A model generated the notes under the pieces. The model saw nothing but the letters and a program-made list of their open reading frames with translations. It was not told the DNA's origin and did not search any database. The position numbers and the translations under genes were made by a program. A stretch of 64,000 nucleotides of DNA from Marsupella aquatica (Eukaryota; Plantae; Marchantiophyta): positions 17,687,437 through 17,751,436 of the forward strand of contig OZ316895.1 in the NCBI GenBank assembly GCA_973895155.1, in the 5' to 3' direction. Of this stretch, positions 1 to 37,290 are shown one piece after another (positions within the stretch are counted from its first letter, which is position 1; each line of letters opens with the position of its first letter).

Positions 1-1
1 G

Positions 2-1819
2 AAGGACGTAGCATATGTATGGACTGCAGCAAGGCAAACAGCCTTTGAAGTTTTAAAAACCAAACTAACTGTTGCGCCCATTCTACAACCACCGGATTGG
101 CAGAAACCTTTTCATGTGTATATTGATGCCTCAGCTTTTTGTGTGGGCGCTGCCTTAAGTCAACTGGATGATGAGAAGAAAGACCACCCTATATATTATG
201 CCAGTAGGCAAATGAATAGTGCTGAAAAGAATTATACGGTCACAGAGAGGGAGGCCTTAGCAGTCATTTTCTCTTGTAAAAAGTTCCGGCACTATCTTCT
301 GGGTTATAAAACTATTTTCCACACGGATCATTCTTCTTTAAAATACCTAGTGAATCAGGCAGATTTAAGTGGGCGCATTGCTAGGTGGGTACTTCTTTTA
401 CAAGAATATGATTATGAGGTACAAGTTCGAGCCGGGAAACACCATGAGAATGCAGATTTCCTATCACGATTGCCTGGAGATCCTAGTGCCGAACCTTTGT
501 CTGATCAATTTCCGGACGAACAGCTATGGCATTTGCAAGGAGAAGAATCAAGGTACTTTGACATTGTTCAGATGCTTACTCACGGAATTTATCCACCAGG
601 GTTGAATGCAGAAGAAAAAGCTGTTTTCCTCTACAAAGTAGGACCATATACTATTGTGAGGGGTGTTCTATTTAAATTATTGCCAAATCAGAGACTTCAC
701 CGTTGCTTGGAAGCTCAAGAAGTTCCAAAGGTTATTTCAGCCTTACACACTGAAGCCTCCGGTGGACACTATGCCGTAAATACAACTGTTAAGAAAATTA
801 AGGACGCTGGATTTTGGTGGCCTACCATGCATAAGGACACTTATAACTACATTCAAAGCTGTGACCCTTGTCAGCGAATAGGGAAGCCTACTGCAACATC
901 AAAATGGCCTCTAACACCCATTTTGCCTCTAGCTCCATTTGAGAAATGGGGGATAGACTTTATTGGCCCCATTTCCCCTGCTGCTAGACGAAGTAGAAGC
1001 AGATATATCATTCTTGCTACGGACTACCTCACCAAATGGGTGGAGGCTAAGCATACTAGGAAGAATGACGCTGCCACAGCCGCCAATTTCTTATTTGAAA
1101 ACATTATTACCCGGTATGGCTGTCCCTTGGAATTGGTAAGTGATCGAGGCCTGCACTTCCTTAATGAGACAATTGAGCTCATCACTGAGAAATATCTGAT
1201 TAAGCATCGAAAGACCACCCCTTATAATCCCCGAGCTAACGGATTGACTGAAAGAGCTAATGGGTTAATGGGAAAAATATTGAATAAAATGGTGGAAGCA
1301 CATAAAACGGATTGGGACATCAAACTCCACTCTGCTTTATGGGCTTACAGAACTGCAGAAAAGATTACTACCTTGAGAACGCCCTTCTACTTAACTTTTG
1401 GTATGCATAGTGTTACCCCCATTGAATTTGAACTACCTACTGAACGGCTTCTGATCTCTGAGAGGTTACCTGAACTTGATAGTTTCCACACTAGGTTGGA
1501 AGTTCTGGATGAATTAGAAGAACATAGACTTCTAGCGTTACAGCATACCATACAACAACAGGATAAACGGAAGATGGCCTATGATAAGAGGTTAAAAATA
1601 CCGACACTACAGCCAGGAGATTTGGCGCTTGTGTATGACTCTAGGTATATGTTCTTCCCTGGGAAGCTTCACACTCACTGGATCGGCCCTTACAGAGTTG
1701 TTACCGTATGGCCTAATGGGTCTTTAACTTTGGAAACCTTGAATGGAGAACCTCTTGATACCAGAATCAATGGATCCAGAGTGAAGAAATATTATATACC
1801 CCACTCCAATGGCTTGTGA
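2..1819 (+). CDS. pol: Ty3/Gypsy pol, C-terminal part (RT connection, RNase H, integrase); 5'-truncated by the window edge
   Basis: Frame is open from base 2. RNase H motifs DAS...YYASR...NY.VTEREAL...TDH; integrase HHCC (H..GGH...WWP...C..CQ); DDE core (GIDF...SDRG...ERAN); GPY motif. No chromodomain. Confidence 0.95.
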   Translation, partial: KDVAYVWTAARQTAFEVLKTKLTVAPILQPPDWQKPFHVYIDASAFCVGAALSQLDDEKKDHPIYYASRQMNSAEKNYTVTEREALAVIFSCKKFRHYLLGYKTIFHTDHSSLKYLVNQADLSGRIARWVLLLQEYDYEVQVRAGKHHENADFLSRLPGDPSAEPLSDQFPDEQLWHLQGEESRYFDIVQMLTHGIYPPGLNAEEKAVFLYKVGPYTIVRGVLFKLLPNQRLHRCLEAQEVPKVISALHTEASGGHYAVNTTVKKIKDAGFWWPTMHKDTYNYIQSCDPCQRIGKPTATSKWPLTPILPLAPFEKWGIDFIGPISPAARRSRSRYIILATDYLTKWVEAKHTRKNDAATAANFLFENIITRYGCPLELVSDRGLHFLNETIELITEKYLIKHRKTTPYNPRANGLTERANGLMGKILNKMVEAHKTDWDIKLHSALWAYRTAEKITTLRTPFYLTFGMHSVTPIEFELPTERLLISERLPELDSFHTRLEVLDELEEHRLLALQHTIQQQDKRKMAYDKRLKIPTLQPGDLALVYDSRYMFFPGKLHTHWIGPYRVVTVWPNGSLTLETLNGEPLDTRINGSRVKKYYIPHSNGL

Positions 1820-1835
1820 GGGCACGGCGCCGTTT

Positions 1836-1845
1836 GAGGAGAGGG
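1836..1845 (+). promoter_or_regulatory. Polypurine tract of the Gypsy element
   Basis: GAGGAGAGGG lies just downstream of the pol stop and 3 nt before TGTAG. Confidence 0.75.
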
Positions 1846-1959
1846 CTATGTAGATAGGCAGTAATTCCAAAGTCATGAAGAAAACCGGAAAATTTTTAAA
1901 TTTTTGAAGTAGTTAAACTATATTTGCTGATAACTCGAGTAAACTAAACTCTGCCGAAG

Positions 1960-2135
1960 ATTAAGAGTTTAAGAGTTGAAGAGTTGAAGTGTTTAAGAGT
2001 TTACGGGTTTACGAGTAAACCCTACTTTAATAGTTTAAGAGTTTAAGAGTTGAAGAGTTGAAGTGTTTAATAGTTTAAGAGTTTAAGGGTTTACGAGTAA
2101 ACCCTACTTTAAGACTTTACGACTTTAAGAGTTGC
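1960..2135 (+). repeat. Degenerate 8-bp tandem array (TTAAGAGT-like)
   Basis: Repeated ttaagagt/tgaagagt/ttacgagt units. A smaller copy of the array occurs at about 4938-5002. Confidence 0.8.
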
Positions 2136-2336
2136 GACTTGCGAACTGGCGAGCCCCGCGATTGTGACAGGCTACGGCTAACTCCAACGGGACTTTGCAA
2201 CAAAACGAGGAGCAGGCCTTGAAGGGGGAGGAATCCAGAACATAGGCGCTCACTCCTGACTTCTCTTCCGCTGCATCTTTCATCGCTCTCGACTCCAAAC
2301 AATTCTTCGCGTAGCTCAGTGAGCAGAATTTGAGCT

Positions 2337-4733
2337 ATGGCTGACTTGAACGCTGATGCACAGTATCGTGTTCAAACTCTGGCAATTCCTAAGAGTGTGG
2401 TCGCTCGAATTCCTTTGGCGCCCGACAGTTGTGAAAATTTGAGAACATCGTTACAGCAGCTCGGATTGGAACATCTACTCGCAATCCCTTGGAATGTGGA
2501 GCTCGACTCTTATTTACAGGATTTTGTGAGAGGATCACTGATTGCCCCTGAATTTCGACAAACCATTCGAGCTCGGCCAAGTTTATGGACAGTTGAGCAA
2601 GTAGCTCATGCCTTCCGCTGCCCCTTAGATGGAGAAGGATTATATTCAAAGAAAAAAGATTTGTCCACTCCTTACTTTTCAGGGATTCGCCATCCTACCA
2701 ATGGCTGGAATGTGACACAATGTACCTATCCGGATTTGAGGATTCTTTTAGAATTTCTAGTGCCCATTCTCCATCCGAAGAGACCAACTATCTGCCCTGT
2801 GGCATTGGCGAATACTATCGTAGCTTCTCACAGTGGAGCTATTCAAGTAAATTGGGCGTTGTTACTTTTCAATGTGATGCACGATCAGGTGAGAAGTATG
2901 AAGGCAGGCAGACCTACTTGTCTACAAGTCTATCTATCTCAGCTGTATCAAGCACATGACTGTTTACATCCGGAGGAGAAAACAGAAAGGGGATTACTTC
3001 TGATCGAGTTGGACATTGAGGAAGAAATTAGTGTAGCAGAATCAGAACAGGACATTCTGCTGAATTCCACTGATCAGGATGTTAATATGGAGGATGTCTC
3101 GATAGATGGTTCGGAATTTCCCCCTGAACACAACATGGAGGTCATTTTATACTCTCCAAGAGAAATCAGTGGAGCAGATCAACTTGAAGCTGAAGGAGAC
3201 GAGATTTTTCCTGAGCAACAAGAAGTCGTTGTTGAACCAACTATTACTGCCATACGAGGAGTCACCATGCCCCCTTTTTCGAAAGCAGAGTCAAATCAGC
3301 AGCTTATTGATAAGTTAATCTCTCTCTTCGGTTGCAGTGATGTTGAACTCTACGATGTTGTCTGTGATTTGAGATCCGAGGCAGTTAGCTTATCCTCTCC
3401 ATTTCCAGATCAGCTAACCCCTGTCAGGACCGCTTCTCCCATTGAGAGGTCAGCACCAGAAGAATTTGTTGCTCTCACTCCTACTGTCCCACAGAATCTA
3501 CCTCCAGAGCCAAGTGAACCTGTCTCAAGGATAGGAAACACAAGTTGTGTTGCAATTGTAACTGACCTACTGGAATTGCTTCAGTGTGAACCTGAGGAGA
3601 TAATCTCTGTGGTTAGTGACTTAATTCCGAAGTACACAGAATTCAAAGGCCCTTCCAACCCGGGTGACTGCATTTATAGTCCAGATTCCAATTATGAGCC
3701 AACCGAGGGACCTATTTATACCCAACCACAGTATGAACATCCTTCTGTTAGACAGGATCTTCCTGAGGATTCTGATCCACCCTCTGATTTTGATTCCATC
3801 CGATCTTATGACAACTCTGTCGAGTCGTCACCAAGGCAAGGATTTGAGGATGTTGACACTACCTTAAGATCTGATCCAAATTTAGTGGCAGTTGTCACCT
3901 CCTCTACTCAAACACCCCGGTATTCTGTCATTGAGAAAAGATATACACGACATCCAGAGTCTCAAGTGCAGAGGTACGTGGAGACTTGTAAGATAATGCA
4001 GGCCAACAGACCCCCAATTGGAGAGTTTTGGAGATACTACTACCTTAAGAAGACTGAGGCCAGTTACATATTTGACCTCAGAAGTTTCGGAACTTCAAGA
4101 GTGGAGATGGCTCAATTTGATGAGTTCTGGGCTGACTCAATCTACTTCCGACCCATCCTTGCTATGATGCTACTTCAAGGGGATGTAGAAGTAGAAGATC
4201 CAGATTTGGTTTTGGCCTATTTCGGGAATTTTGCAGCTTACGCTCTGGACTTTGTGATTTCTTTTCTCATGCAGAGTAAGAAATCCACTTCTCACCAGAA
4301 CTCTTACATCCCACGAGAGCCGAAGGTTGTCCTTGTTTCCACCAGTTCCCTAGCTGAGAAACAGAGGATCTGGAATAATGTCACTACTCAGACCCTGGCT
4401 CATTTCAACCGATATTTTAAGGATGTCAGATGGAGACTTCGACCCTTCTATTCCAGGATGATGAATAGTGATGAGTTTCTGCATCACTATCCCCAAGTAT
4501 ATGCTGCCACCTGCAACAACTATGATGTACTAGGGATATACAGAGAAGCTCTTCGTATAAATTCCTGTTATTTGATGAAGCGAATGCCTTTGATGTATCC
4601 TGAGAGACAACTAAGGTGCCTACCCTACTCTCGAGGATCACCACGTCAGACTGAGCTGATGGAGGTAACACAGAATCGGACTGTCACCTACGTGGAGCTG
4701 CTCGAACCCGATGATATTCGACAACAAGCTTGA
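2337..4733 (+). CDS. 798-aa retrotransposon-associated protein of unknown function
   Basis: Long intact ORF. Globular-looking N-terminus (PW..., TIR..P..WT, LEFLVPILHP), acidic S/P/E-rich middle, aromatic-rich C-terminal domain. Confidence 0.8.
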   Translation: MADLNADAQYRVQTLAIPKSVVARIPLAPDSCENLRTSLQQLGLEHLLAIPWNVELDSYLQDFVRGSLIAPEFRQTIRARPSLWTVEQVAHAFRCPLDGEGLYSKKKDLSTPYFSGIRHPTNGWNVTQCTYPDLRILLEFLVPILHPKRPTICPVALANTIVASHSGAIQVNWALLLFNVMHDQVRSMKAGRPTCLQVYLSQLYQAHDCLHPEEKTERGLLLIELDIEEEISVAESEQDILLNSTDQDVNMEDVSIDGSEFPPEHNMEVILYSPREISGADQLEAEGDEIFPEQQEVVVEPTITAIRGVTMPPFSKAESNQQLIDKLISLFGCSDVELYDVVCDLRSEAVSLSSPFPDQLTPVRTASPIERSAPEEFVALTPTVPQNLPPEPSEPVSRIGNTSCVAIVTDLLELLQCEPEEIISVVSDLIPKYTEFKGPSNPGDCIYSPDSNYEPTEGPIYTQPQYEHPSVRQDLPEDSDPPSDFDSIRSYDNSVESSPRQGFEDVDTTLRSDPNLVAVVTSSTQTPRYSVIEKRYTRHPESQVQRYVETCKIMQANRPPIGEFWRYYYLKKTEASYIFDLRSFGTSRVEMAQFDEFWADSIYFRPILAMMLLQGDVEVEDPDLVLAYFGNFAAYALDFVISFLMQSKKSTSHQNSYIPREPKVVLVSTSSLAEKQRIWNNVTTQTLAHFNRYFKDVRWRLRPFYSRMMNSDEFLHHYPQVYAATCNNYDVLGIYREALRINSCYLMKRMPLMYPERQLRCLPYSRGSPRQTELMEVTQNRTVTYVELLEPDDIRQQA

Positions 4734-5925
4734 AGGAGACTATCTTTTTAGCTAGTATTGAAAAGTATAGTACTTTTACCAATTTTTCTAAATGTGTTGT
4801 AGAGCTTTAAAAGCTATGAGACTTCTTTAGGCTGTAGTCTGTACCTAGGAAACCCTGCTGGAAAAATTTCAGAGTTTTCCGAACCAGGAGTAGAAAGTTA
4901 AAAATAGTTGAATCTACTCAATTTTTAGTATACCGAAATTAAGAGTTTAAGAGTTTAAGTTTTTACGTTTTTAAGAGTTTAAGTTTTTAAGAGTTTAAGA
5001 GTTCATACTTAGCCATTTTTTCCGGCTTTCCACTTATTGAATCGTCGTTTTGACTTTTTGAGGGTTATGAAGAGGCATGTCTCTTCGACCCTGTGACCTC
5101 TTATTCTGTAGTTCATCACTATTTATACCTCTTCCCCTAGTGTAGAGAGATGGTTAAGTTTTGCAGTTTTGCCTCTCCCTTGTGTTAAACTAGTTGATCA
5201 TGAATCTATGAGTTCGAGATCAGGTTTAACATTTGGAGAGACTTACCTCCTTCTTGTATTTTGGAACCCAAATACTTGAAGTAAAACCTCAGTTATGAAT
5301 CTCGTGAATTATAATGTCAGATTCCGCTTTGGTGACACATTGTAATCTCACAAGTTCTTAGAGTTAACTCATTGAGTTTAAGTTGCATTGGAAATGATGT
5401 TTTCACCTTCATGTTGTTTAGTACCATCTAAATGCTGAAGTATTTATCCTTTTAGATCTTGACTAAGTATCACTTAGGAAGAAAGGTCAAGACATGTTGC
5501 CGGCATTTTAAAAGGATACTCTAGTATGCAGTTTAGATCTGAAAAGCCGTGTGGATTTGGATTCCCTTTAAAGTCATTCCATTATTACTTATGTCTAAGG
5601 AGTAACCTTGGTCTATTCCAGACTCCCTTAAGCATACTCTGAGAGATTTTTCCTTGTGTTTTGTTAATTGCAATCTTTTGCTTAATTGAAGGTTATCTGA
5701 TGTTGAGTTATCATCAAAAACTACTCACCGCTGTGGAGCGATCTTCAAAGTACCTGATTAAAGTAGTCAAGATTGATTACTATGTGTGACACAAGAGCTT
5801 AAAGCTTTGTTTTTAGTTTATTACATCAAACCAACCCCATCTTGTTCTTAAAGGGAACGAATACCGAGTTTAGAGACTTTAAAATGTGATTTTTGGTTCT
5901 CTATGGCAAACTACATGCCCGCAGG

Positions 5926-6522
5926 TCATTTTCTAGAGTTTACGAAAAGAAGTTCTTGGTTTCTTTCGGTGACTAGGAGGTGGGCTATGAGCTCGGAGTA
6001 TTGCCCGAACTTCATGTTTCGATACTGTGTTGATAGCCACACATTCGATGAATGAAATGTCGACAAGGTCTTCTCTAGCAGATCCTTGTCTGTGACCGGC
6101 TCGCCACATAGTGCGAGGGTTGAGGTTATTCTAAAGAGTTCACTATTGTAGGCTGATATCGAGGTTAAGTCCTGGACTCGCAGGTTGAGCCAGTCTTGCC
6201 TGGCTTTAGGTAATTCGACCAGTTTCTGGTGGTCGAATTGGGTCTGTAGGGCTGTCCATAGTTCCCGAGGGGTCGATAGGTGCATGTATTGTCTCTGGAG
6301 GAATCTATGGATATGGCGTCTCAGGAATACTAGAGCCTTAGATTCGTTGGCTTTAGTTAATGGGTCTGGTTGTGGTTCGCTGGCAAGGGTGGATTGAGCG
6401 AGCCCTATCGCAGGGAGTAGGGTTAGCGAGGTTAGGTTTTCTTTTAGGTTCATGGACCATTCTAGGTAGTTGCCACCATCTATTTCTAGGGCGGGGAAGG
6501 TGAGTTTCTCAAGGTTGGCCAT
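5926..6522 (-). pseudogene. gag: Bianca-type Copia gag fragment
   Basis: MANLEKLTFPALEIDGGNYLEW...FLRRHIH...LW..L...FDHQK...WLNLRVQD...YNSELFRITS.L.LCGE...LLEKTLSTFH. Premature TGA, followed by the Gypsy LTR junction at 5915/5916. Confidence 0.85.
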
Positions 6523-8158
6523 CTCTAAGGTCCTGGCGTGCAACGGTGGTGTGCGTGTTTATATATAATGTATATAGTCAAAAGACAATGCACATTTGCC
6601 GCATGCAATGGTGGAGAAAGGGTTTGCACTTATTAAGTTGGTTTTCTTTGTGAATGTATAACTGCAAGGTTTCGTTTGTATTATCTTTTTCCTTTGTTAA
6701 GCTGTGCAGTTGTCTAGTTGTGCACTTAGGGTTGCAGTTATGGGTGGTAATATACTCGTGCCTTGGTTAAGTGCACTTGCAGCTTTGTAAAGTAAATTTT
6801 TCTTTGTTACGGTGTGCAATTATAGAGGTTTTGTGGTTATTTGCACTTAGATGGTTAAGTGCTTGGGTTTCTTTGTGTGCAGGAAATGACTTTGTAAAAC
6901 TGTGCAATTGAGGAGGGTGGTTTGCTTATCGGTTTTCCCTCGTTATTCTTCCTTGCATTGTTGCGCAATTTGACACCTCAGTTGTGCTTGCTTGGCAGCC
7001 CCGGTTCCTCCTTGGGTGCACACCGATCTTGGTTTCCTCCTGCAGTCGAGCGTTTCGACTCCGTGGTCTCTTGGGGCTCGTGTGTTGTTGAATCTGTAAT
7101 TCTTGCTCTCGCTATCTCAACAACGTGAATAAGGTCTATCTTAGGCCCACTCAGTGACTTTCGGGAATATCAAGGGGCGGAACATTTGGAACATGGTGGA
7201 TCAATTGGGTTTTCCGTTTCTCCTCTCATTACTCTTAATTGGGCTCACGTCAGCTATCAGTCACCATCGGGATCGCTCGCTCTTCGTAACCTCTGCAACC
7301 ACGTTCGGCCTTACGTTCCTTCTCTTTACTTCTCGATCTCGACCCTTATCTTTGCTCTATCTTCGCCTTCGATCTGCTTCGCTCTTCTCTTATGCTCTAT
7401 TTTTACTCCTTTCCTTATTTCGATCACTTCTTGGGGCTTATCGTTCGTAAGCTTTTCTTTCGTAAGCGTATCCTTTCTTAAGCTTTTAGGGGGACTTTTC
7501 GATCAACTTTCAATCACATTCGAGATCTTCTCAGGCGATTTCGCCTCGACCTTCAACCTTCAATCGATCGCTCCAATCTCCTCCAATCTCTGTAGGCTTT
7601 TCAAAGTGTCTTCGCTTCTTTCCGATCTCTTTTCTTCTCTCTCGATTCTCCTCCAATGAGTCCGGATCGGTCCTTATGAATTCTTTGTCTTTGTTCTCTT
7701 CGTTGCAGAAGAGTTCGGGAGTCTTGATTCTCTTTGCTAAAGGGTGAGGCTCCACTTTCCTTCAATTTTCGAAAGGTTTTATGGCCTCGTTGTGTTTCTT
7801 ATCATTCTCGGTTCTCCTCTATTTTCGAAAGTTCTTATGGCATCCTCATTGTCCTTTCTCGCTGCGCCTGTGATAGACCGACTCGTTTGGAGCCTTGTAA
7901 TTTGTTAATGATTCAATGTTCCTTATCACCTCCGATTTCCGTAAGCCTTCGAAAGTTTCCTTCTCAATCTCTTTGATGCTTCATCGAGACCTTCTTTCTC
8001 TTAATCGTCGGAGTCCTAAATTCAGTCAGTAAATCGTCGAACCCTTTCGCTTTGCATTGCTTACCCCTCTCCTTTGTTTTTGGAAAAAAAATGTTATCGC
8101 CTTATCGTTGTTTCTTATCATTCTCAATTCTCTGCTCTGCTCTCCGCTCGTTAAGCTT

Positions 8159-16684: not shown

Positions 16685-17290
16685 ATGGCTAAAGCTATAG
16701 AGAACCATTTTGACAGCCAATTCTGGGTTGCTTGTCATGCATTGCTCTGGTTACTTGTAGAGGCACTTAGTGCCATTTTTGGCACTGTGCATCTCATGTT
16801 GGAGCGACTCCGCCCACTCCCTACTGCACTTGGATCTGAGCCAACAACTGTGGAAGGAGTCGTGCCTATCGACAATGAAGAGCTTCGTGGAAATGTCCAC
16901 ATATATCCACCCAATTGTTTAGTGTCTACTCCTTGCGCTACACCTAGTGCATTTCTCGGTAGTGCAATCACTAGACCATATAATTGTAACCTAGGAGTTT
17001 TCTCCAAGCAAAAATGGTATGCAGTGGCCATAGGGAGAACTCCAGGAATATACAAGACTTGGGAGGAGGCTGCCAGACATGTCAATAAGTACAGTGGGGC
17101 CAAACACAAGTCCTTTACGTCTATATTACAAGCAGAGAATTGGATGGACAGGGAGTTGGCTGCCACAGGATATATCCCATATTCACGTCATAGGCAAAAC
17201 ATAGAATTTATGGGATTAGACGATGCAGGGCATCATGTTTATAGATGTGTGTGTTGTGGTGAGATATTTTGTGGAAATGGCGAAATGTAG
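16685..17290 (+). CDS. MULE accessory ORF with an RNase H1 N-terminal hybrid-binding (caulimovirus viroplasmin-like) domain
   Basis: KWYAVAIGRTPGIYKTWEEAARHVNKYSGAKHKSF...AENWM (17012-17146) fits the YAV..GR..G.Y..W..C...V..Y.GA..K.F consensus. Hydrophobic N-terminus; C-terminal H..RCVCC....C. Confidence 0.85.
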   Translation: MAKAIENHFDSQFWVACHALLWLLVEALSAIFGTVHLMLERLRPLPTALGSEPTTVEGVVPIDNEELRGNVHIYPPNCLVSTPCATPSAFLGSAITRPYNCNLGVFSKQKWYAVAIGRTPGIYKTWEEAARHVNKYSGAKHKSFTSILQAENWMDRELAATGYIPYSRHRQNIEFMGLDDAGHHVYRCVCCGEIFCGNGEM

Positions 17291-17416: not shown

Positions 17417-20279
17417 CTATGGGTCAAATGCTCCACTTGCTGATTCTCTTGCTATCTCATCTGCAAGGCTAATGAAATAATCCATGTCACTGACTTCACT
17501 TGGTTCCTGATCTGAGTTCATTGGATCCACACTATCAGATTCACATGAATTGTCTGAACTGTCCAACAATACTGCAAGTGGGCCTGATGGGTTCACTAGC
17601 TGAGAAGTCGGTTGTGCATGGTCACCCAAGTCTTGTCCATCATCTTCTGGTACTACTTGTGCAGGAGTTGTACCTCTATTAACAGGACAAGTTCTCCTGT
17701 TGTGGCCCACTTGACCACAAACAGAGCATTTTGTCTTTCCAGTATTCACTTGAGGCCTCCTGCTAGTCCTGGTTGAACCCTGCCTTCCTCTTAGAACTTG
17801 TTCGCACCTGGCTGTAGTTTGTGCAGTTTGCATTGGTGTGATCCTATGACTGTCATCTCGAATTGGAAATTGTCGAAACAAATTACCCTCTGCATCCACA
17901 TACTTGTCTTGAGCAAGTTCTGATGCTATGGATGATCTGTTGCCTCTCTCAATCTGCACCACTCGATGCCTGCCTTTTTTCACAGCTGGAATAGGAGGTA
18001 GAGAGTGCTCTGACGGGTCTAAATCAGAAACCAGGAAACAAGGTACCTTAGGCTCATATAACTTTCGCAAAGAAGCCATTTTCCAGCAGTGGTGGAAATG
18101 TTGAGTGAAGTCCTTCCCGTCCCTGTCATACCAAGCCATTAAATGTTCACATGGCCATAACATTTCTTGTATTTCCACACAACTGCAACTGAGTTTTGGT
18201 GATAGTGTGACCAAATACTCCTCTTGTTGGTCTGTGGTCTGAACTTTTGCTTGGCATTGTCCATCATCTAGCACTTGCCACTGTCCAAAGTTTCGCAGGT
18301 TCTTTGTGTGTCTCTTCAAGGCTTGCTGGCTGTAAGTCTCTTGTCTTGCAATTGCAGCGGATTTCTTGTTGTTGTAATGGGTCTGGATGTAATACCACAA
18401 CTCCATTAGCACTTTAAAAGGTGAAAACTCCCTAATGGGAAGCAGACCTGAGTTGGCTTGCTCCACAGGGTTGCTGGTAACCTTCCCAAGTTGGGGCAAG
18501 GGGAATGCATGTCTAGCATAACAATTCTCGTCCATGTCTCTGATGTGCTTCAGCCCCGTCTGACAGATGATGACAAGTGGTCCAACAACAGCTCAAACTT
18601 GCAACCCATGTGAATGCCAATGTATAAGCAAAGTCAATCTATGTAAGGTTTAGCCCTTCCTTAGTCAAACTGAAAGTAAAACATTTCACTGTACTAGACT
18701 TGGGCCTTAGCTTACCGTCTCTTAGTGTTGGCATACACACAAGCCAAAAAGATTCGTTCCGCTCCCTTGCCGTGACATTTCCTAACATTGGCTCTCAAAT
18801 GGTTGGCACAGTGGCCATGAACTTTTGTTGGGAACACATTTCGAACAGCTGCTTGCAAGCCCTTCTGTCTGTCAAAAATCAATGGAATCGTAGGGTCTAC
18901 TATGCCGTGAACTGATCGCTCCAACCATGACAAAAACCATGTCCAATTGTCAGTATTTTCCACAGGAGCAATGGCATAACATAGAATGTTCACTTGAGAG
19001 TTTCCATCAAGTGCTGTAGCTACAAAAAGTTGAATAGGATACTTCCAATTCTTGGTGTGGCAAGCATCAATGCACACCACAGGTTGGCTGTACTGTAAAG
19101 CTATGCGGGTTGCAGATGGGCATATGAAAGCTCGATTGAAAACTCTACTGCCTTCCACAGTAGACCAATCCACTACACACTCTGGATCAACAGCCTTCAT
19201 TCTATCCAGCAAAGATGGGATTAGGAGGAAACTCTGGCGCTGGCCACCAAGGTACCAATCTCTAACAAGATCTCGAGCCTGCCACATCTGATGGTAATTA
19301 CAACTCTTTTTGTAGTCCATCTGGAGTCCATTTAACATTTCCTTCACTGGCACTTGGACATTCAGCACTACTCGAGGCGCTAGCGTCACACCCAACCATG
19401 CAGATTTTTGGACAGGGCCTCGCCACTTATGCTTGTAACCTAGACATGTATGCTGCAGATTGCATACTGTGATTGTAAACTTCCCATCCTTCTCACGTTG
19501 ACATCTTACTCAAATGGGCAGGGCTGAATCAATTCAGTGTTGTCACTGTCTTGTGGTGGCAAGAACCGACATTGCTCTCCACATGCTCCGGTTTTTGACT
19601 GATTCCGCAGCTTCGCCCCTGCTGCCTGTTGCTGTGGAAAACTTGCAGGGATCCACTCCCTAGTATGTGCCACGTATTCTCTTAGGTTATTGTTAGTTCC
19701 AATGGACTGTGGAATAGTATTGGCCACAATTTCTTGTAATGGTGTTGTGGAATTGATGGGCCTTGGAGTAGTTGTCAGTTCCCCTGCAATGTCTTTGTCA
19801 CCACAATCTTCCTGGGATCCTGCCAAATTACTAAATTCAGCCGGGAATTCAGCTTCATGAAAGCCTGCAATTTCTATCTCAGAGTCTGGGCCTGAATTTG
19901 AATTGCTTCCTCTCCAACGAGGTCTGGTGTTAGGTCCAAATCAACAAACTCTAACTCTGAACTTGTATTTTGTCGCCAGCCTGTGGCTCACCCTCCCATA
20001 TAGCACACTCCATGAATCCAAGCAGCGATCAAATTCATTAAAAGTGGAGAAAGATTCTCCAAGCCTAATACGAGTAGCCTCCTCTTCCACCTCATGTGGG
20101 GACTTCCCTCTCAATAGTGGATTAACTTGTTCAATCTCAGAATTCCAAACTGCAAAATGACCCTGCAGCTCATTGCTTGGAGGCAACGGAAGCCTCTCAT
20201 GATCTGGAATGTGTAACGGATATGCATCCCCTCTCATCCAATCTGGCACTTCATTTTCATCACAGACTTCTGCCTCCAT
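17417..20279 (-). pseudogene. MuDR/Mutator transposase, disrupted
   Basis: MULE core (CIDACH...ATALDGN...ENTDNWTWFL...IFDRQKGL...HGHCANHL), SWIM zinc finger (CSC...PCEHL), zinc knuckle (CSVCGQVGHNRRTC). In-frame stop near 19941, frameshift near 19506, probable intron at about 18600-18715. Confidence 0.9.
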
Positions 20280-21914: not shown

Positions 21915-22170
21915 GGGCCCCCGGCCCTTGCTGTTGTGTAAGGATCCCTACATTGGGGCAGCTATCTGTACAGTGTCAGGGAATTTGGTGATCTACAATA
22001 TTATGTGGTGTCTCGATTTTGTTTGGGGTGATTGATGGCATTTGGTCACAAGGAAATAACCCTAATTTGTTTTCAAAGTTTTAATAGCTTTTGTTTACGC
22101 TATATTACATTGACTGTTCCAGTTGGCCTACTTGTTGAAGGTAATTTTTCATATATTTGAAGGATCTCTG

Positions 22171-22515
22171 TGTTGAACATAGACAAAAATTGCAACTGCA
22201 AGCCCATGAACCATCCAATGCACAAGAGTCGACACAGAGAGATACGTGATTCACCTCCTCATGAGGCTACATCCACGGGAACACACACGAGTTTTACTGC
22301 ACTCTAGGCCGACCGGCCATACCAAGCATCCACAATGCAAGCTCTCTTTATCTCTCAACTAGCTCCGTAACAATGAGCCTGAGTTCCCACTCTCCAAGCA
22401 AACACCGCTTGGTTATAGAGTGTGCACAGCATGACTAACCTAACCAAGTCTGCGACTAAGGTTAGCCTTAACTACGATACAGTTGTAACTCTAAACCTAA
22501 GAGTAAATCCTAACA
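22171..22515 (-). mobile_element. Copia-family solo LTR
   Basis: TG...CA termini, 5-bp TSD CTCTG. Reverse-strand similarity to the LTRs at 28498 and 40611. Confidence 0.9.
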
Positions 22516-24269
22516 CTCTGTACGATTTAAACTTTGAGGTTTCTAAACATTTTGATGTGGAGGCCAAAGCCCAACTTTTTCTTTTCATTTGTCAACCGTA
22601 GTGGATCATTAATCAAGTTATGAATAGCATAAACAAACTTGCATTTGCAGAAGGTATTTCATCCTTTTCCGGGTTCCATGTGTGCAACCATGGTAGATCG
22701 TTGATCAAATTGTGATTGGCTGTGGACACCTCCTGACATTAGGCTATTGGTTACAAATAGTAGCAACAAGACCCCATTTGCAGAAGGTATTCCAAATCCC
22801 TTGTCGATAATCACACATCAAAATGTGATAAAATATAATGTGCACTTGATTTAAAGAAGATAACTAGATTTATCATGGTACGGAGAATGTCATACACCAT
22901 ATATGTCATATTTTGATGTGTAACTACCGGCTCCAAATCTCTGCAATTCAAACTACGTGCAGTCATAAATTATTCATAACATCTTATTCACAACTTATCT
23001 TATTTGTAACTTCTAAGATCTTATGAACTGAAGGTCTGCCACCTACTTCCAATGACTATGTCCAACTGTATTAAGTTAATGCTCCCTAGTTTTCTTGGGG
23101 CCGCATACATTGCCCCTCCGGTCCCCAATACATGTTGCCTGCTCGGGTGCCTGCTCTGGCTGGATTGACTTTGTTTTCTATTCTTTCAATATCAAAGTTG
23201 GTTGACAATCTGGTTTATGTTCTGCCAAGTGTTCTTCCCCTCTTGAGTCGTGGTTGCAGGTCTGGCAGTACTTTGTTCTAGGTGGAGTCATGGTTGCTTT
23301 GCTAACAAAGTCTAAGTGTTTTCAGACAGAGCCTGGTACTTTGGTCAAGAGTCATGATTGATAGACCCGGATTGACAGAGTCTTGAATTGTGTTGCAAAC
23401 TTGTGCTTCCCCTATCCCGAGGTCTCATTTAGTCAAAAATGGCACATCATATGTGACAAAGTATATTGTCATTTAATTCCCAATTGGATTTGTTTAGAGT
23501 GAAGACTTGGTTTGTTTGTGAAAGAACTTAGATAGGGTTTTTAGCCCACTCTTGGAATATTTTTTAATATTCCAAGAGTTTTTAGGATTAGTAAAGGTTG
23601 AAATTTTCCCTATTTTTCTTTAAGTTTTAGGGTGTTCAAGTCTTCAAAACTTTTGCAAGTGGTGGGGGCCCCTATGTAGTGAGACCCCCAAATCCCAACA
23701 AGAGTCAGGACTATTTATATGGCAATGAACACTGAAATTTGAGTTTGTTTATCAATTTGTAAACACTCTTAAGTTCACCCTCATACATGGCTTCCATAGA
23801 CAACTCCGGGACAGCAAAATGTGAAGGGTGCCAGAACTCAAACTTAAAGTAGATACACAAATCAAATTGATCGGGAGCAGACAGCACACATTGGGGACTG
23901 GGACAAGTAAAATACAGGCCCCAACAAAAACTGGGGAACAGTAATTTGACTTATTTAATGCAGGGTTTATTTCCATGGAGAACAGGTTCTCACGATCGTA
24001 GTGCTTGGGGACACTGTGTCATTCCAAGGCTTGATTCAATTTTCTGGAAGTCTCAAATGTCAGAAATCCGCACTGTCAAGGTTGAATTTATTCACTAATC
24101 AATGTGCAACATGTCCATTGTTGAGTTTTTGGCTGACATTCTTGAAACACAATATGGGCTTATGACTTACCATCATTTTTCTTCTGTGTGCTCATCAGCT
24201 GTCTTGCATTTTTTCCAAGATTGCTCATGATGTTCCTTATGCTAGCTTCCATATCATAGCCTTCCTGCC

Positions 24270-27359: not shown

Positions 27360-28002
27360 TGATATATCCGGTTCTTACAATATACAGTTAACACGATTTC
27401 CGACCGAACGAGAACTATTTCCGCAAATGAGAAGTGTGTTTTCATTTTCCGCCGAAACTCGCGAAATCGGTGGTTTTTTTAATCAAAAACAGGATTTTGA
27501 GGAAATAATGTAATCCGTATCGGAGTTCGGATTGAATCAAGAAATTTAGGAATGGTCCAAACCACTGAAATTCATGCTCAAAAACATTCAATTTATCAAG
27601 GAAAAATTAGATCCGAAAAACTTTCGCCTGAACCTCATATTCACGCTCTCCGAAGATATATGAAAGGTCTTATCTAGAAATCCATATCCACTTTTTGAGC
27701 AAAGTCCGATAACTATATCGGACTCCGGATTTCAACAATGAAAGTTCCGACCCAATCTCAGTTTTCTCAATTTTTGGTTATTTACCGTAACTATTTTACA
27801 TCACAGTCGATAAGAAATTACTACACGGTTTGTCAAACTTACCTTGCAGTTACCTCCACAATTGACCATAGTTACCTCCGCAAGTGACCATAGTCAACTT
27901 GTCGTTGTCTCAACCGCAATGTGCCGTCCGATAAAATTATCGTGAAAACTCCGGACGGCCAAAATACTTGCCGACAATACTAACATCCTTCGATTCATCG
28001 GT

Positions 28003-28380
28003 TAAATTTCAAAATTGCAACTCTCCATATGAAGAAAACACTTTTGCAATACCAACATCAGATAAATTTATCGCTTAAATTTCAAAATTGCAACTATCCA
28101 TATGAAGAAAACACTTTTGCAATACCAACATCAGATAAATTTATCGCTTAAATTTCAAAATTGCAGCCATCCATATGAAGAAAACACTTTTGCAATACCA
28201 ACATCAGATAAATTTATCGCTTAAATTTCAAAATTGCAACTATCCATATGAAGAAAACACTTTTTGCAATACAAACATAGATAAATTTATCGCTTAAATT
28301 CCAAAACTGCAAACATCCATATGAATAAAATCTATTTTGCAATACAAACATAGATATATTTATCTCTCAAATTTCAAAAC
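28003..28380. repeat. 73-bp tandem array, about 5 copies
   Basis: aaaattgca recurs at 28011, 28084, 28157 and 28230. Units carry the GATAAATTTATC palindrome. Confidence 0.9.
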
Positions 28381-29274
28381 TACATAATTTCGCCAAGATG
28401 CACATGTAAGAATCAAATTGGATATTCAAGAAATATACCCTTCTCTGTTATTTTGTCGTTTAGCAAGACAGTCAATCAAAAGTGGCCACGTGGGCCATGT
28501 TAGATAGTGCTCTAGTCTTGTGACTCATGAGCTAACTATAGTTAGGCTAACTCAGGTTAGGACTTAGCTAATGTTAGCGATAGTGCTGGTGTGCATATAG
28601 CCAGGGCTGATGCCAGACCCTGGTGGAACTTAGGCTCATTGTTACGGAGCTAGTTGAGAGATAGGGAGAGCTTGTGTTGTGAATGCTTGGTATGACCGGT
28701 CGGCCTAGAGTGCAGTAAAGCTCTTGTGTGTTCCCGTGGACGTAGCCTCATGTGGAGGTGAACCACGTATCTCTCTGTGTCGACTATTGTGCGTTGGATG
28801 GTTCATGGGCTTGCAGTTGCGAATGTCGTCTATGCTCAACAAGTGGTATCAGAGCATGCTTGGGAGGTGATGAGGTTTTTTCGTGACAGGTTTTTCCAGC
28901 GTTCATTGTCGGTGGCACATTCAGAGTTTTGTCGCATGAAACTTGAATGTATGTGGCTATGCGGATAGGTTAGTGAGAGGGCTTTCTAACGGTGGTTAGA
29001 ACTCGCTGATCCGTGGTGCGGAAGAATTGAAGTTTGCATCATTCAGGGTTTATTCGTGTTCGACGGTATTTCGGGGGAGAGACCAGAGATCGTGTTTTTC
29101 AACGGTATGAGCCGTGCGGTGCGGGAGGGATCGCACATTATAGCTCAAGTTAAAGGTTGAAGCGAGCTGGTCGTTTCGGTAGTTGGATAGCTGCCAAGTT
29201 GTTACTGAGTGCGACGTGACGAGTGAAGGAGGCATTCAGGTTTTTTCACAAGCTATGGAGCTTGTTCTCATCTG

Positions 29275-29618
29275 TGTTGAGCATAGACGAAATTTGTAAT
29301 AGCAAGCCCATGAACCATCCAACGCACAATAGTCGACACAGAGAGATACGTGGTTCACCTCCACATGAGGCTACATCCACAGGAACACACAAGAGCTTTA
29401 CTGCACTCTAGGCCGACCGGTCATACCAAGCATCCACAGCACAAGCTCTCCCTATCTCTCAACTAGCTCCGTAACAATGAGCCTAAGTTCCACCAGGGTC
29501 TGGCATCAGCCCTGGCTATATGCACACCAACACTACCGTTAACATTAGCTAAGTCCTAACCCGAGTTAGACTAACTGTGGTTAGCTCATGAGTCACAAGA
29601 CTAGAGCAATATCTAACA
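29275..29618 (-). mobile_element. Solo LTR of the same Copia family, inserted in inverted orientation in the 5' UTR
   Basis: 344 bp, TG...CA termini, TSD ATCTG. Reverse complement of the host LTR. Confidence 0.93.
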
Positions 29619-30912
29619 ATCTGAACCGGGTTTCTCTTTACAGTGACATTTGACTCGGTGGAAGAAACGCGAAGTGCTCCGGCTCAACAGTTTGATCGCG
29701 GCGAGGCGGTCATTTTGAGCCCGGGATTGGCACTTGACGCGGAGTGAAGGCGACACGGCAGAAATTTTTTACTGAGCTGGGGCTGCATACTGTGCCGATG
29801 CAATTCGGCAACTTTTTCCATCAGCGGCATTCATTTTTCTCGTGAGAAACAACAGCTTTTCAAGTGAGTTTTTTCATTCATTTATCCCGTGGGAGTTTTT
29901 TGGTTGTAAGGGGCTTAGCGGAGTCCCTTTGGTGTGTACATCTTGAAAGAGTACACACACCCGAGGGTCCCCCATTCACCCCGTTACTCCCCCCGCCTCG
30001 CGTACGTTGTTTCCCCCCGCGCGCACCCCAGTTTTAACGGCACTCCGCAGCGCCGGCCTGCGCATTTGCAGCCGCCCGGCTGCTGCCACCCTTCGGCCTC
30101 CTCGCGCCCTGGCCCTTTGTATTCCCTTATCACCGGGCGCACCTCGCTCCCCCTTCGCGAGCCGGCCCCGACTCCCTCCTGACAGGTTTCTCCTTATGGC
30201 CGGCCCTGCCTTTGGCCTACCCCCCCCGTTGCGACCTTCAATTCAACCGGCGCCCCTCCCCGGCGCATGGCGTACAATCACCCCCCTCCCGACCCTGTAT
30301 TTGGCTGCCTTATACGCAGCCGCCCAACGCCCTTGCGTACTCTGTGTGCCCTTGTACTCTGCGTACACCGACGCGCCTTTTTTATACATGTATTTTCTGA
30401 TTTAGCACCCCCTTTAAGGGCCTATTTTGAACCTTTTTTCCTTCCTTTTGTTTCCTCTTGTGCCGGGACCTGCCGCCCTCCGTTTTAACCGCTCCGACAA
30501 GGGGAACGGCCCCCTGTGAGACCTGTCGGACTGTGCGGGAATATTCCCAAAAAACATGGAGCTGTTTTTCGGCCGTCCAACAAAGATTTCATCCTCCAAA
30601 CGGTAACTTTTTTTGGTTCTTTTTTGGCAAGGACGTTGCCACTGGAGTTAGCAACGCGGCGCACCGATCACATCGCGATTCCGACGACGGGTTGTACTGG
30701 GTATTTTGGTTATTCTCCAAGGTGGTCAAAATGGGGGAGTTTCCCAAGGTTTTACCCACCCCGACTGAAATTTGAATAACTTTTCCGTCGAATTTCAATT
30801 TTGATTTTGGCTTTTAGTATTGGACTCCTAGCTTCGTGGGCTACGTGGCGGTGTTGAGTTTTGAGTTTTATGAGAAGTTTCAAAAAAAGACGTTTTTTTG
30901 TGATTATTTTAT

Positions 30913-33900
30913 ATGAGTGACTCGGAGGATACTAGAAGAATTGGCATGGGTGGAGCTTCAAGATTGCGACGGACAGACGGTGAGTCTGAGGAGCTGCTAC
31001 CATTTGAGGAAGAACTAGTGACACCGGTACGATCACCAGTGCGACGTGCAGTGGAGGAAGCTGTGTTACTACTAGAGCTGTCGGTAATTGGAAAGAAGAG
31101 GGAGATGGCTAGATTTGGGTGAGTGAAGTTTGAGGTGGAGAAGTACGATGGTCGTACTGATTACTTGTTGTGGGAGAAGCAAGTGAAGGGTGTTCTACGG
31201 GCCATGGGCTTAGCTCATCTGCTCTCTTTGCAAGAGCCGTATGATGGAGAGGAGGAGATTTTTGTGAGACAGTGGAGACAGGAGCAGGTGATTGCTGTTA
31301 ATGCAGTGATGCTATATCTCAAGCCGCACATCATCAAGCAGCTGGATGATTATGCGGATTGCACGTCACTGTTCAAGCCTCTTAGAGAGAAGTACTATCG
31401 AGAAGATGCGTCAGACCGGCTGTACAAGAAGTCTCTCTTAATGAGCCTCAGGCTCAAGGAAGGGAGCAAGATGCAGCATCACCTGGATGAGTTTGACAGT
31501 CTAGCGGTGGATCTGTCAAACCTGGGAAAAGGAGTTGAAGATGAAGATAAGGCCTTGCTTCTGCTAAGCTCCTTACCGCCATCTTATCAGGGCTTGAAAC
31601 AGGTGCTCTTGTACAGAGATTTGAAGTCCATTTCGTATAATGAGGTGGTGAGCTCTTTACTATCTGATGATGCTCAGAAGAAGTTGGGACAATCACATAC
31701 AACATCTTCTTCTGGCACTGTGCTCAATGTGAACAGGGGAAGAGCAGCGCGGAGCACGAATGGGCAGAACAGGTTTAGATCTACATCATGGGGGAGATCT
31801 AAATCCAGAGGGAAATCGCAAGAGAGGAAGCCTCTTGCATGTTGGAATTGTGGCAAGCCTGGCCACATGAAAAGGGATTGTCGAGTAAAGGTCCCTCCTG
31901 CCTTTGCTAACGCGGCATCGAGCTTGCATGAGGTAGATTTACTCGATGATGATGACATATTGTGATGCCAAGGTTATGCTCTCAACGTAGTGTCAAATCC
32001 AAGTAGTAATGACTGGATTCTAGATAGTGCATGTACTTTTCACATTTGCTCTAGGAGAGATTTTTTCAATTCTTACACGGTTTCCAACGGGTCAGTGTTG
32101 ATGGGAAATGGAATCCCATGTCAAGTTGTTGGACTTGGATCTGTAAGATTTCAGATGTTTGATGGTGCTGTGAGAATGTTGAGAAATGTGAGACATATTC
32201 CCAGCATGATGAAAAATCTCATTTCACTAAGAATTTTAGAAGCAAATGTCCATCAATAGAGTTCTGCTAATGGTGTCCTTCAGGTTTCAATTGGTACTCA
32301 AGTTGTATTGAAAGGAAAAGGACATAGCAATCTATACGTTTTGGAGGGCAGTGTAGTCTGTGATGAAGCCAATGTAACCTTATCTCATGAGGAGACGGCC
32401 CAATTGTGGCACTTCCGTTTGGGCCACATGAGTGAAAAAGGTTTGGCTATTCTTCAGAAGAAAGGATTACTTTCTAATTTGCAATCTTGTAAGTTGGAAT
32501 TTTGTGAGCACTGTGTGCTAGGGAAGCAGCACAGGAAACCCTTCGGAGTTGGAACTCACACCAACAAGGAGGTACTTGAGTATGTACATAGTGATGTGTG
32601 GGGTCCAGCCCCTACTCCCTCACATTCTGGACGGTTATACTATGTCACGTTCATTGACGATTACTCAAGGTATATGTGGATATACTTTTTACACAGTAAG
32701 TCTAATGTTTTTGCCACTTTTAAGGAGTGGAAAGCCCAAATTGAGAATAAGACTGGTAATAAGGTGAGATATCTATGATCGGATAACGGTGGTGAATACA
32801 GTTCTGGTGAATTTAGAACATATTGTAAGGAGCAGGGGATTACCCGCCATCTCACAACAAGTTATACTCCTCAGCAAAATAGTATTTCTGAGAGACTCAA
32901 CCGAACACTATTGGACCACTCGAGGAGTATGTTGAGTCAATCATGCTTACCACATGAATTTTGGGCTGAAGCTGTCAACACTGCAGCTTATTTGTCATGA
33001 TACAGTTCATGACAGGAGAGATGGAGAAGCTCCGGGCTTGGAGTTGGTTCCTGTGATGGAACAAGAGGAGCAGATTGTTGCTGGGGTACCTCAAATTCAA
33101 CCAGCAGCAGTGGCAGATCAGCTAGAGTCATCTACTAGAAGAACTTTCAATCGTTCTACTAGAGCTCCTACCAGGTATGGTCAATGGGCAGACTCATCTA
33201 AGCTAGATGATACTTGCACGATTCAACATGGAAAACTATAAGCCAGTGAGTATTCCTTTAGCTTCATATTGCAAGTTATCATCGGCTTTCTCTCCTACGG
33301 ATGCTGTGGATAAAGGTCTGATGGCTAAGATTCCTTATGAGAAGGTAGTAGGCAGTCTAATGTATTTGATGACTTGTACTAGGCCTGACTTAGCCCTAGC
33401 GATGGGCAAGGTTAGCAGATTCATGTCAAATCCAGGAAAGATACACTAGGAAGCTGTGAAATGGATTCTTAGGTATCTCAAGGGTACATAGGACTATGGA
33501 TTACTATTATATAACAAATCAGATAGAACGTTAGTTGGCTATGTAGATTTTGACTATGCAGGCTGTCTGGATACAAGGAGGACGGTCTACAACTGGGTTT
33601 GTATACACTTTTGGAGGAGGATGTATCTCCGGATGTATTAGTTGGAAATCTACCTTGCAAAAGTGCATATCTCAGTCTACTACAGAAGCAGATTATATTG
33701 CAGCAGCAGAAGCAGCAAAGGAAGCAATTTGGTTGGATAAGTTGATCGCGAAGATGGGTTTAGAGCATGGAAAAATGACTCTAAACTGTGATAGTCAGAG
33801 TGTTCTTCACTTGGCTGTTAACCAGGTGATGGATAGCAGGGTGAAGCACATTGATATCAGGTACCATTTTATCAGGCAAGCAGTGTCTGATAAAACTTTT

Positions 33901-34011: not shown

Positions 34012-35512
34012 TGCAAGTAGAGTTATTTAGCAATGTGTGACTATTTGTATGTGGATTACTCATTCCTATTAGGCTACGACTTAGTTCTAGTTAACCCTTG
34101 TGGTTTTTAGGGGGAGACCTCGTTTGGTGATTGTCTAGAACTTCCCGTTGAGGATTCCATATGGTAGCATTTAGTCTAGTCCCCAAGACAAGAGTCAAGG
34201 AGGAGTTTGTTAGATATTGTTCTAGTCTTGTGACTCATGAACTAACTACAATTAGGCTAACTCGGGTTAGGACTTAGCTAATGTTAGCGGTAGTGCTATT
34301 ATGCATATAGCTTGAGCTAATGCTAGACCCTGGTGGAACTTAGGCTCATTATTACGGAGCTAGTTGAGAGATAGAGAGAGCTTGTGTTGTGGATGCTTGG
34401 TATGGCCGGTCGGCCTAGAGTGCAGTAAAGCTCTTGTGTGTTCCTGTGGACGTAGCCTCATGTGGAGGTGAACCACGTATCTCTCTATGTCGACTATTGT
34501 GCGTTGGATGGTTCATGGGCTTGCAGTTGCGAATGTCGTCTATGCTCAACAGGCCAACCCCTCAACAGACAGGTATTATATAAGGGCCACCGCCAATGAG
34601 TTTTTGGCATCATTATCCAGAGTAGAGTTTTTTTTGGAGTTGTGTTCTTGGAGCAACATTTTGTCTGTTGAGCCATTCGTTTTCCCTGATTGAGGGGAGG
34701 TATGCAAAGCCCCATAGTGTCTCGGATAACCATGTCTCAATCAGACATAGATTCACCTTCAAGTTTAGTTAAAATCCTCTCCTAATGTTGTCGCTTGCTC
34801 TTTGCTAAGTCGCATCCCTAAAGCTCTACCTCTCGCATAGTAGATTGTGCCTGAAATCTTTGACTTTGATTGGGATTTTGATGCAAGTTCTAGTCCTAAG
34901 CCCAATTCTTACTATGTGTCGCCTAATAAACCTGAGAAGTGTTCTCTATTGAGCATTCCATCGCCAAGAATTGAGAAAATTTCAATCCCACGTTTAGGTC
35001 TGAGATGTCGCTTCAGGCCATCCATCCCGGGTTATGGAGAGGGTATTCGGCAACTGATATGCGTATCGCACTCGGCATTCAAGTTGCCACATTCAACTCA
35101 CATTCAACGATGGATTTTTCAGTCTCCGGGTGAGGAACAGGAAGCAGAAAAGAGTAAGTTTCTAAACCCGTGTGTTACTCCCAATAATTTTATTGGGTTG
35201 AGGATTCCAATGCTTCTTCTTTGGTAATTGTGTGTGAATATATTGTTTGAATAGCTTGAATACTTATCCCAATAAATTTATCGCTGTCATGGTTTAACAT
35301 TATGGTAATCAAATCAAGTGTTTGAATACTGAACCCGATAAATTTATTGTTATCAATCCAGCAAAGTTCTAAAATTTTTTATTATTGAGGAAAATTCTCA
35401 ACATTGCTAAACGAGCATCGGAAGGCACAAGCATTGGAGAGGAAGAACTTAGCAAAGCACCTGAGCAAATATAACAAGAGTTCTGAGAAATATTTGGAAC
35501 ACAAATTTGGAC

Positions 35513-35990: not shown

Positions 35991-36029
35991 AAAGCTTTAT
36001 CAAAATTTATCGAACAAAGGAATCTAGAA

Positions 36030-36230
36030 TGTGATAAATTTATTGCATGTTTGTTGGAATCTTGAATCCAACAGAGGAATGCATACTACGATAAAATTAT
36101 CGCATGTTTGTTGAAATCCTGAATCTAACCAAGGAATGCAGACTGCGATAGTTTTATCGCATGTTTGTTGGAATCCTAAATCCAACAGAGGAATGTGGAT
36201 CGTGATAAATTTATCGCATGTTCACAGAAA
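36030..36230. repeat. 57-bp tandem array, about 4 copies
   Basis: GATAAATTTATCGCATGTTTGTTGGAATC-like units at 36033, 36090, 36147 and 36204. Confidence 0.8.
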
Positions 36231-36849
36231 TCCTCTCACATTGATAATGAATTAATAACAAACCTTACATAATTGATAATACTCGAATCGAAATGCAAAT
36301 TCCGATAAATTTATCGGGTTTTTGAGAGAAAGATTCAAATCTCCTTATAGGAATTTAAGACTTGATAGGAGTTTGGTATTTTCTTTAAGACAAATGTTGT
36401 TTGATTTGGCAATCAAACTAAACTTTTATGGCCATCTCGCTCCTCCTTATATAGGGAATGCTCTAACCATGGTTACTATTTCCCACAAACCATGGTTAAC
36501 TTTGCACTAATCTGGGTTAGTGCGTGGTCGACTCTTGATTACGTGATTGGGACCAAGTTACTCATAGTTGGGACTTTGGGCAGCTTTTGAAAGTTACAAA
36601 TGTAAAACCCGATGCACGTATCACTACCTACATTCCTGCGATGATGCAATGTCCAAAACTGATGTTTTTTTGATTTGACATCCATTTTATTGGAGTTTGC
36701 ATTGCCTTAGAAAAAAATAGAGTCGGGCTAAACGAGAAGTGTGTCACACTTCTTGGTCGGTCCGAAATCGTGTTGCCATGAGGGTGCGATAAGTTTATCG
36801 CACTTTGCATTCACCTAGAAGACATGGCCCCATCAAACACCTAAGCCCT

Positions 36850-37290
36850 GAATCCATCACAGGAATGCACACTCTGATAATTTTAGCGGATGTCCTCTGA
36901 ACCATCTTCAATCCATTAAAGGAATGAAGACTCCGATAAAATTATTGGAGTCTCAAATCATCGTCAATCAATCACAGGAATGGAGACTCCGATAAATTTA
37001 TCGGAGTCTCAAATAATCTTCAATCCATTAGATGAATGAAGACTCCGATAAATTTATCGGAGTCTCAAATAATCCTTAATCCATTAGATGAATGGAGGCT
37101 CCAAGAAATTTATCAAAGTCTCAACTAATCCTCAATCCGTCAAAGGAATGAAGACTCCGATAAATTTATCGAAGTCTCAAATAATCCTTAATCCATCAAA
37201 GGAATGAGGACTCCGATAAATTTATCGGAGTCTCAAATAATCCTTAATCCGTCAAAGGAATGAAGACTTTGATAAATTTATCGGACCTTG
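36850..37290. repeat. 57-bp tandem array, about 8 copies, built around a palindrome of up to 28 bp
   Basis: GAGACTCCGATAAATTTATCGGAGTCTC is a perfect palindrome at 36983-37010 and recurs with variants every 57 bp. Confidence 0.9.

Follow-up and report, generated by a model that had tools for sequence, protein, structure and literature searches.

Layout of the element

The window analysed here, a 64,000-nt stretch of a Marsupella aquatica contig (OZ316895.1, positions 17,687,437 to 17,751,436), opens inside the pol gene of a plant Ty3/gypsy retrotransposon, downstream of which lies an intact open reading frame (ORF) for a 798-aa protein, P0001. This gene very probably sits inside the long terminal repeat (LTR) of the element, whose 3' end comprises the following features:

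2..1819, plus strand: 3' portion of Ty3/gypsy pol, covering RNase H and integrase (ORF listing, Pfam)
1810..1852, plus strand: pre-LTR block of GGCGCCG, polypurine tract (1836-1845), CTA and TGTA (contigs matching 1760-1950)
1849..5915, plus strand: likely 3' LTR of 4,067 bp, TGTAG...CTACA (junction contigs, depth step)
1961..2140, plus strand: array of 8-nt units (TTAAGAGT) with nine AAGAGTT copies, itself an 82-nt duplication (repeat search)
2247..2336, plus strand: pyrimidine-rich putative leader with AG dinucleotides shortly 5' of the ATG (sequence only)
2337..4733, plus strand: intact ORF of P0001, 59% of the LTR (ORF listing, conservation)
2364..2996, plus strand: N-terminal domain, aa 10-220, predicted VANC21-like fold (fold match)
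3297..3635, plus strand: two copies of a helical module, L..L..C....I..VV..L, in an acidic linker (contigs, pattern count)
3954..4730, plus strand: C-terminal domain, aa 540-798, a conserved family (homologue comparison)
4806..4818, plus strand: TTTAAAAGCTATG, possible relic of a second polypurine tract, G-rich core absent (likeness to the tract of a relative)
4939..5003, plus strand: second array of the 8-nt AAGAGTT-containing unit, five AAGAGTT copies (repeat search)
5120..5127, plus strand: TATA-like box, TATTTATA (sequence)
5916..6522, minus strand: insertion target, a copia element with its gag ORF at 5926-6522 (Pfam, contigs)

The pol ORF is open from the window edge for 605 codons to its stop at 1819, without internal stop or frameshift, and its Pfam matches place RT_RNaseH (32-136) ahead of Integrase_H2C2 (239-293) and rve (311-410), the Ty3/gypsy order. 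The ten-purine tract is followed by CTA and then by TGTAG, so that it abuts an LTR running from TG (1849) to CA (5915), as in Ty3/gypsy elements and in agreement with the junction contigs. The visible 605 aa hold one RNase H and the integrase, without chromodomain or additional RNase H (aRH), and thus far the element would qualify as a non-chromovirus OTA element (Athila, or Tat without aRH). Pol type and Atlas taxa place its host among the plants. CTACA at 5911-5915 is followed by TGCCC at 5916-5920, the predicted target-site duplication, and no second copy of the LTR is present in the window, which starts within pol. A sequence-only reading had already placed the polypurine tract behind the pol stop, TGTAG at 1849, the ORF at 2337-4733, the TATA-like box at 5120 and CTACA at 5915, and all are found there. 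The TATA-like box is presumed to be the main LTR promoter, with the U3/R border downstream, while the leader could be either a Y-patch promoter with 5' untranslated region or a splice acceptor.

Extent of the LTR

Contigs of public runs bear on the boundaries: seven of the nine listed runs contain part of 1-6500. Assembled contigs were compared with 1-6700 (runs X1 to X4; results cover the 32 of 6,343 pieces listed) and with 1760-1950 (X1, X2, X5 and X6; 26 of 59 pieces and 21 of 33 loose ends listed); contig depth is no direct copy number. Foreign flanks abut exactly 1849 in two of the four runs compared there, from two organisms. A contig of X1 (record 6, depth 8.7) carries 975 foreign letters and then matches 1849-1891, and in one of X6, from another organism (record 26, depth 6.9), 1849 is preceded by 101 loose letters, the visible 30 of which lack a purine tract. 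The first letter of X5 record 23 falls on 1849. The last of X2 record 14 falls on 1878 (1849+29), the point at which an assembly graph, presumably of 31-mers, would merge. Just inside 1849, depth rises about threefold in both runs with both sides visible, from 150.9 to 452 in X1 and from 508.5 to 1551.9 in X2. The ORF is likewise deeper than the adjoining pol end, by 1.9x in X1, 2.4x in X2 and at least 2.2x in X3; if 8.7, the depth of one contig, is the single-copy depth in X1, this corresponds to about 17 pol ends, 33 ORFs and 52 LTR starts. At the right end, the matches of X2 record 16 and X3 record 24 start precisely at 5916, preceded by other letters, as would be expected of empty (uninterrupted) copia sites.

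Related contigs have the tract and TGTA in common and diverge behind 1852 in all four runs compared there; one contig of X2 and one of X5 depart behind 1848 instead. The whole block 1810-1852 is common to sister families that differ on both sides: in all four runs loose contig ends fall before 1809-1814 and behind 1851-1852, and in X1 and X2 its summed depth is several-fold above that of adjoining pol. It is possibly in use by many sister or non-autonomous families. Within this block, GGCGCCG at 1826 resembles a primer-binding site (PBS).

Together, the foreign flanks at 1849, the threefold depth step and the junction contigs at 5916 give good support to a roughly 4-kb LTR containing the ORF, as the sequence-only reading had proposed; the LTR probably spans 1849-5915, and the ORF begins 488 nt into it. 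An LTR limited to about 5107-5915, which that reading had named as its refutation, is not what the contigs show: foreign flanks adjoin copies that start at 1849. Its more specific placement of the gene in U3 is read from the TATA-like box.

Several observations weigh against this LTR. Inverted-end matches of at least 5 bp occur at seven sites within 1800-5800, among them 5107 (7 bp), 4833 (6 bp) and 1849 (5 bp); eight TG sites are preceded by a tract with at least 11 of 13 purines, and in a 12-nt purine scan 5151 ties with 1849 (10 of 12). End motifs alone do not exceed chance as evidence for the LTR start, and sequence alone cannot fix it because these rival inverted matches and purine-tract TG sites exist. 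Farther upstream, the depth of pol approaches that of the ORF in X2 and X4 (ratios 1.0-1.3) and partly in X3. Towards its 3' end, the LTR exceeds the 5' part of the ORF in depth 2-3.5x. One X3 contig (depth 49), with 21 letters on its short side, joins 2127 to 4984; this would be a 1.2-kb LTR lacking the gene or an artefact of the repeats, and gene-less LTRs may exist. Sister families sharing pol or R-U5 and differing in U3 would explain the uneven depths. No contig among the pieces listed spans the whole element.

A relative, L002, one of two loci from a metagenome scan (two of 75 pattern matches), also enters the argument. Its pol is 66% identical to that of the window over 600 aa, and its ORF has an N-terminal domain 38% identical to that of P0001. 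L002 is a circularly permuted, collapsed element with the order pol, purine tract plus GG, ORF, second tract plus TGTG at 6574, a stretch of roughly 1 kb with CTACA at its end, and a PBS at 7576, presumably of Athila type. Its ORF looks internal because TG follows only the second tract, downstream of the ORF, although the LTR start is here read from a collapsed contig. At 814-822 of L002, the gag-protease frame ends in TAG followed by an in-frame CAATCA, ahead of reverse transcriptase (RT), RNase H and integrase; we take this to fit the CARYYA stop-readthrough signal, in an unusual position between protease and RT.

Could the usual LTR then be short, starting at about 4833 or 5107, with P0001 an ordinary internal 3' extra ORF and 1849 a rarely used second junction? 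The longer inverted matches at these two sites, the greater depth at 4583-5915, an ORF:pol depth ratio of about 1 in X4 and the arrangement of L002 would all fit. However, copies in two organisms start at 1849 behind foreign flanks and with a depth step, sister families diverge after TGTA, and no purine tract stands ahead of 5107 or 4833; the letters before 5107 are pyrimidines. On the contigs compared with 1-6700 and 1760-1950 we hold this explanation to be improbable, though copies flanked at 4833 or 5107 may also exist. Hardly any more credit, and if anything slightly less, goes to a short, gene-less LTR (1849-2127 plus 4984-5915, about 1.2 kb) into which, between the arrays, a passenger segment with the ORF would have been introduced in one sub-lineage. 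The X3 contig and the greater depth of the LTR start over the ORF (452 against 291 in X1) speak for it, but the 2127-4984 joint occurs in only one of four runs and within repeats, and ORF homologues follow pol in the relative with 66% pol identity, so that the gene has long belonged to the lineage. Of the two directions, deletion between the arrays is the simpler.

The encoded protein and the AAGAGTT arrays

The ORF is conserved: a full-length sister, P0003, is 71% identical to P0001, and contigs cover 2172-4285 (X1) and 2041-3815 (X2) without a differing letter. The best fold match of the N-terminal domain is VANC21 (PDB 9lnk) at 10% identity and with a moderate fold score; no sequence-level match of this domain to VANC was found, and its VANC21-like fold is a prediction. 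The C-terminal domain gained no Pfam, PDB-sequence or Atlas assignment. In the linker, a variant lacking 84 codons in frame (joint 3318 to 3585) occurs in four of four runs, and the module pattern is found in seven of 157 proteins (internal repeat p ~0.03). No Pfam family matches P0001 above cut-off, which holds for ATHILA ORF-1, Transposase_32 and plant mobile domain (PMD) alike; these Pfam families are also absent from 40 relatives, and Transposase_32 was matched in one of 65 relatives (E 0.005). A weak Atlas lead connects the N-terminal domain to Transposase_32 and ATHILA clusters (0.89). P0001 has no clear transmembrane segment, such as env-like additional ORFs of plants carry: its top 19-residue Kyte-Doolittle mean is 1.53 (aa 624), the usual threshold being about 1.6.

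Both 8-nt arrays flank the ORF in non-coding DNA. AAGAGTT occurs nine and five times in these flanking stretches; the ORF has one copy, pol has none and the remaining 58 kb contain 17. AGCGCTA is absent from the window. L002 shows AGCGCTA 11 times (four in the LTR, three in the leader, three in gag-pol, one in the ORF) and AAGAGTT once. VANC21 and VANC6 of Arabidopsis VANDAL elements bind words of 8-9 nt, which are arranged in non-coding DNA as family-specific arrays, and they have a variable linker with internal repeats (PMC5735166). P0001 and its surroundings resemble them in the linker and in the family-specific 7-8-nt words repeated in non-coding DNA, with AAGAGTT arrays here and AGCGCTA clusters in L002, two families in all. 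The carrier differs: VANC belongs to VANDAL, a Mutator-like DNA transposon, and P0001 to a gypsy LTR, so that by context it is not a VANC. Nevertheless, it likely works like one, as far as the predicted fold and the arrays can tell, and the arrays are candidate binding sites for it. The predicted VANC21-like domain leads us to suggest that the protein likely binds the arrays and helps the family to escape silencing. This supports the earlier idea that the gene may encode a trans-acting regulator.

Two points limit this reading: the word comparison covers two families only, with words picked post hoc, and tandem arrays are common in non-chromovirus Ty3/gypsy elements (PMC6317226). The gene could instead be functional within the LTR as a general chromatin or particle accessory protein of PMD/ATHILA type, the arrays being host transcription factor sites or products of slippage. 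The moderate fold score, the C-terminal 260 aa that match no assigned fold, the frequency of arrays in such elements (PMC6317226) and the role of PMD-type proteins such as MAIN, which take part in silencing rather than oppose it (PMC5418596), are in line with this. On the other hand, the word differs between the two relatives and lies in non-coding LTR or leader DNA of both, the pattern of VANC targets (PMC5735166), and we regard the accessory role as unlikely, if well ahead of the readings that deny the gene its place in the LTR. Granted that place, VANC-like action on the arrays seems to us slightly more probable than its absence. Overall, we lean towards the 3' end of a plant Ty3/gypsy element with an LTR of about 4.07 kb and a conserved gene for a protein with a predicted VANC21-like domain, which would bind the AAGAGTT arrays and keep the LTRs of its family unsilenced.

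Plus-strand synthesis would prime at the tract directly after pol; reverse transcription would therefore place a copy of the gene in each LTR and solo LTRs would retain it, giving two identical LTRs per element and ORF-bearing solo LTRs. The gene may have a U3 promoter of its own or be expressed by splicing of transcripts from the 5' LTR promoter. Bound to the arrays, the protein would then counter silencing in trans on every word-bearing copy, gene-less relatives included.

Known systems and the origin of the layout

Athila, Tat and Ogre elements (ATHILA ORF-1 PF03078, PMD PF10536, Transposase_28/32) likewise carry a sense ORF downstream of pol, together with long LTRs (to ~5 kb reported) and tandem arrays, but their extra ORFs are described as internal, whereas here the tract precedes the ORF and the ORF lies in the LTR (PMC6317226, PMC7264820). 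Rice Retrosat2, RIRE3 and RIRE8 also combine LTRs of more than 3 kb with an extra ORF; by description, they are set apart by ORF0 being upstream of gag-pol (PMC3485330). A parallel in layout is sag of mouse mammary tumour virus (MMTV), a protein gene in the LTR that is copied to both ends; 490 of 527 sag-bearing contigs lacked other retroviral genes and were read as solo LTRs (PMC4667437). MMTV sag encodes a membrane superantigen of an animal betaretrovirus, and only "the majority" of it is in U3 (PMC4667437); here, in contrast, a 2.4-kb ORF without clear transmembrane segment begins 488 nt into the LTR. The layout is less unique than the sequence-only reading implied, as sag is mostly in U3 and mostly found in solo LTRs (PMC4667437). 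We found no report of a whole gene inside a plant LTR in the literature, of which mostly open-access papers were searchable.

How might the gene have come to lie there? In the window, TG follows the first tract, and at the second place there is only TTTAAAAGCTATG, possibly the relic of a second polypurine tract, though as a motif it is weak and was chosen post hoc. An ancestor may have carried the gene between two polypurine tracts, as in L002; had plus-strand priming later switched to the upstream tract, the gene would have come to lie in U3. One relative and one weak post hoc motif suggest this history, which we offer tentatively, at a little less than an even chance. A broader proposal is more speculative still: that a complete anti-silencing module, a VANC-fold gene with its target arrays, was packed into the LTR by the tract switch, that solo LTRs act in trans, and that VANC-like anti-silencing is far older and wider than dicot VANDAL elements, VANC having been described as dicot-specific (PMC13547354).

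If true, each element would hold two doses of the gene, and each solo LTR would be a free-standing cassette keeping the family and its gene-less relatives active. Solo LTRs, usually viewed as the result of host disarming, would stay active helper genes, and LTR retrotransposons would join DNA transposons as carriers of sequence-specific anti-silencing. What the extra ORFs of plant Ty3/gypsy elements do is a question that the literature leaves open (PMC7264820). This element pairs a predicted VANC-like domain with an adjacent candidate word, and the different word of L002 provides a built-in specificity control. Very long plant LTRs would also merit checks for genes, as surveys locate extra ORFs by reference to the polyprotein region.

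The rest of the window holds further mobile DNA. At 55400-58836 lies a GC-rich broken retroelement with RVT_1 (E 4e-8), a downstream Cys/His knuckle and an endonuclease-like motif, which presumably resembles CRE-type non-LTR elements. Pieces of a Mutator-like element transposase with SWIM and zinc-knuckle traces (17417-19338, minus strand) adjoin an ORF with an RNase H1 N-terminal domain (16685-17290). A second copia gag with a zinc knuckle lies at 31204-31965. Five copies of a ~340-nt repeat, 86-95% alike and in both orientations (22167-22516, 28498-28841, 29271-29622, 34204-34551 and 40610-40923), are possibly transposon ends. The tandem arrays at 27920-28384 and 36009-37406, with 73-nt and 56/57-nt units, have a GATAAATTTATC core in common and contain internal palindromes.
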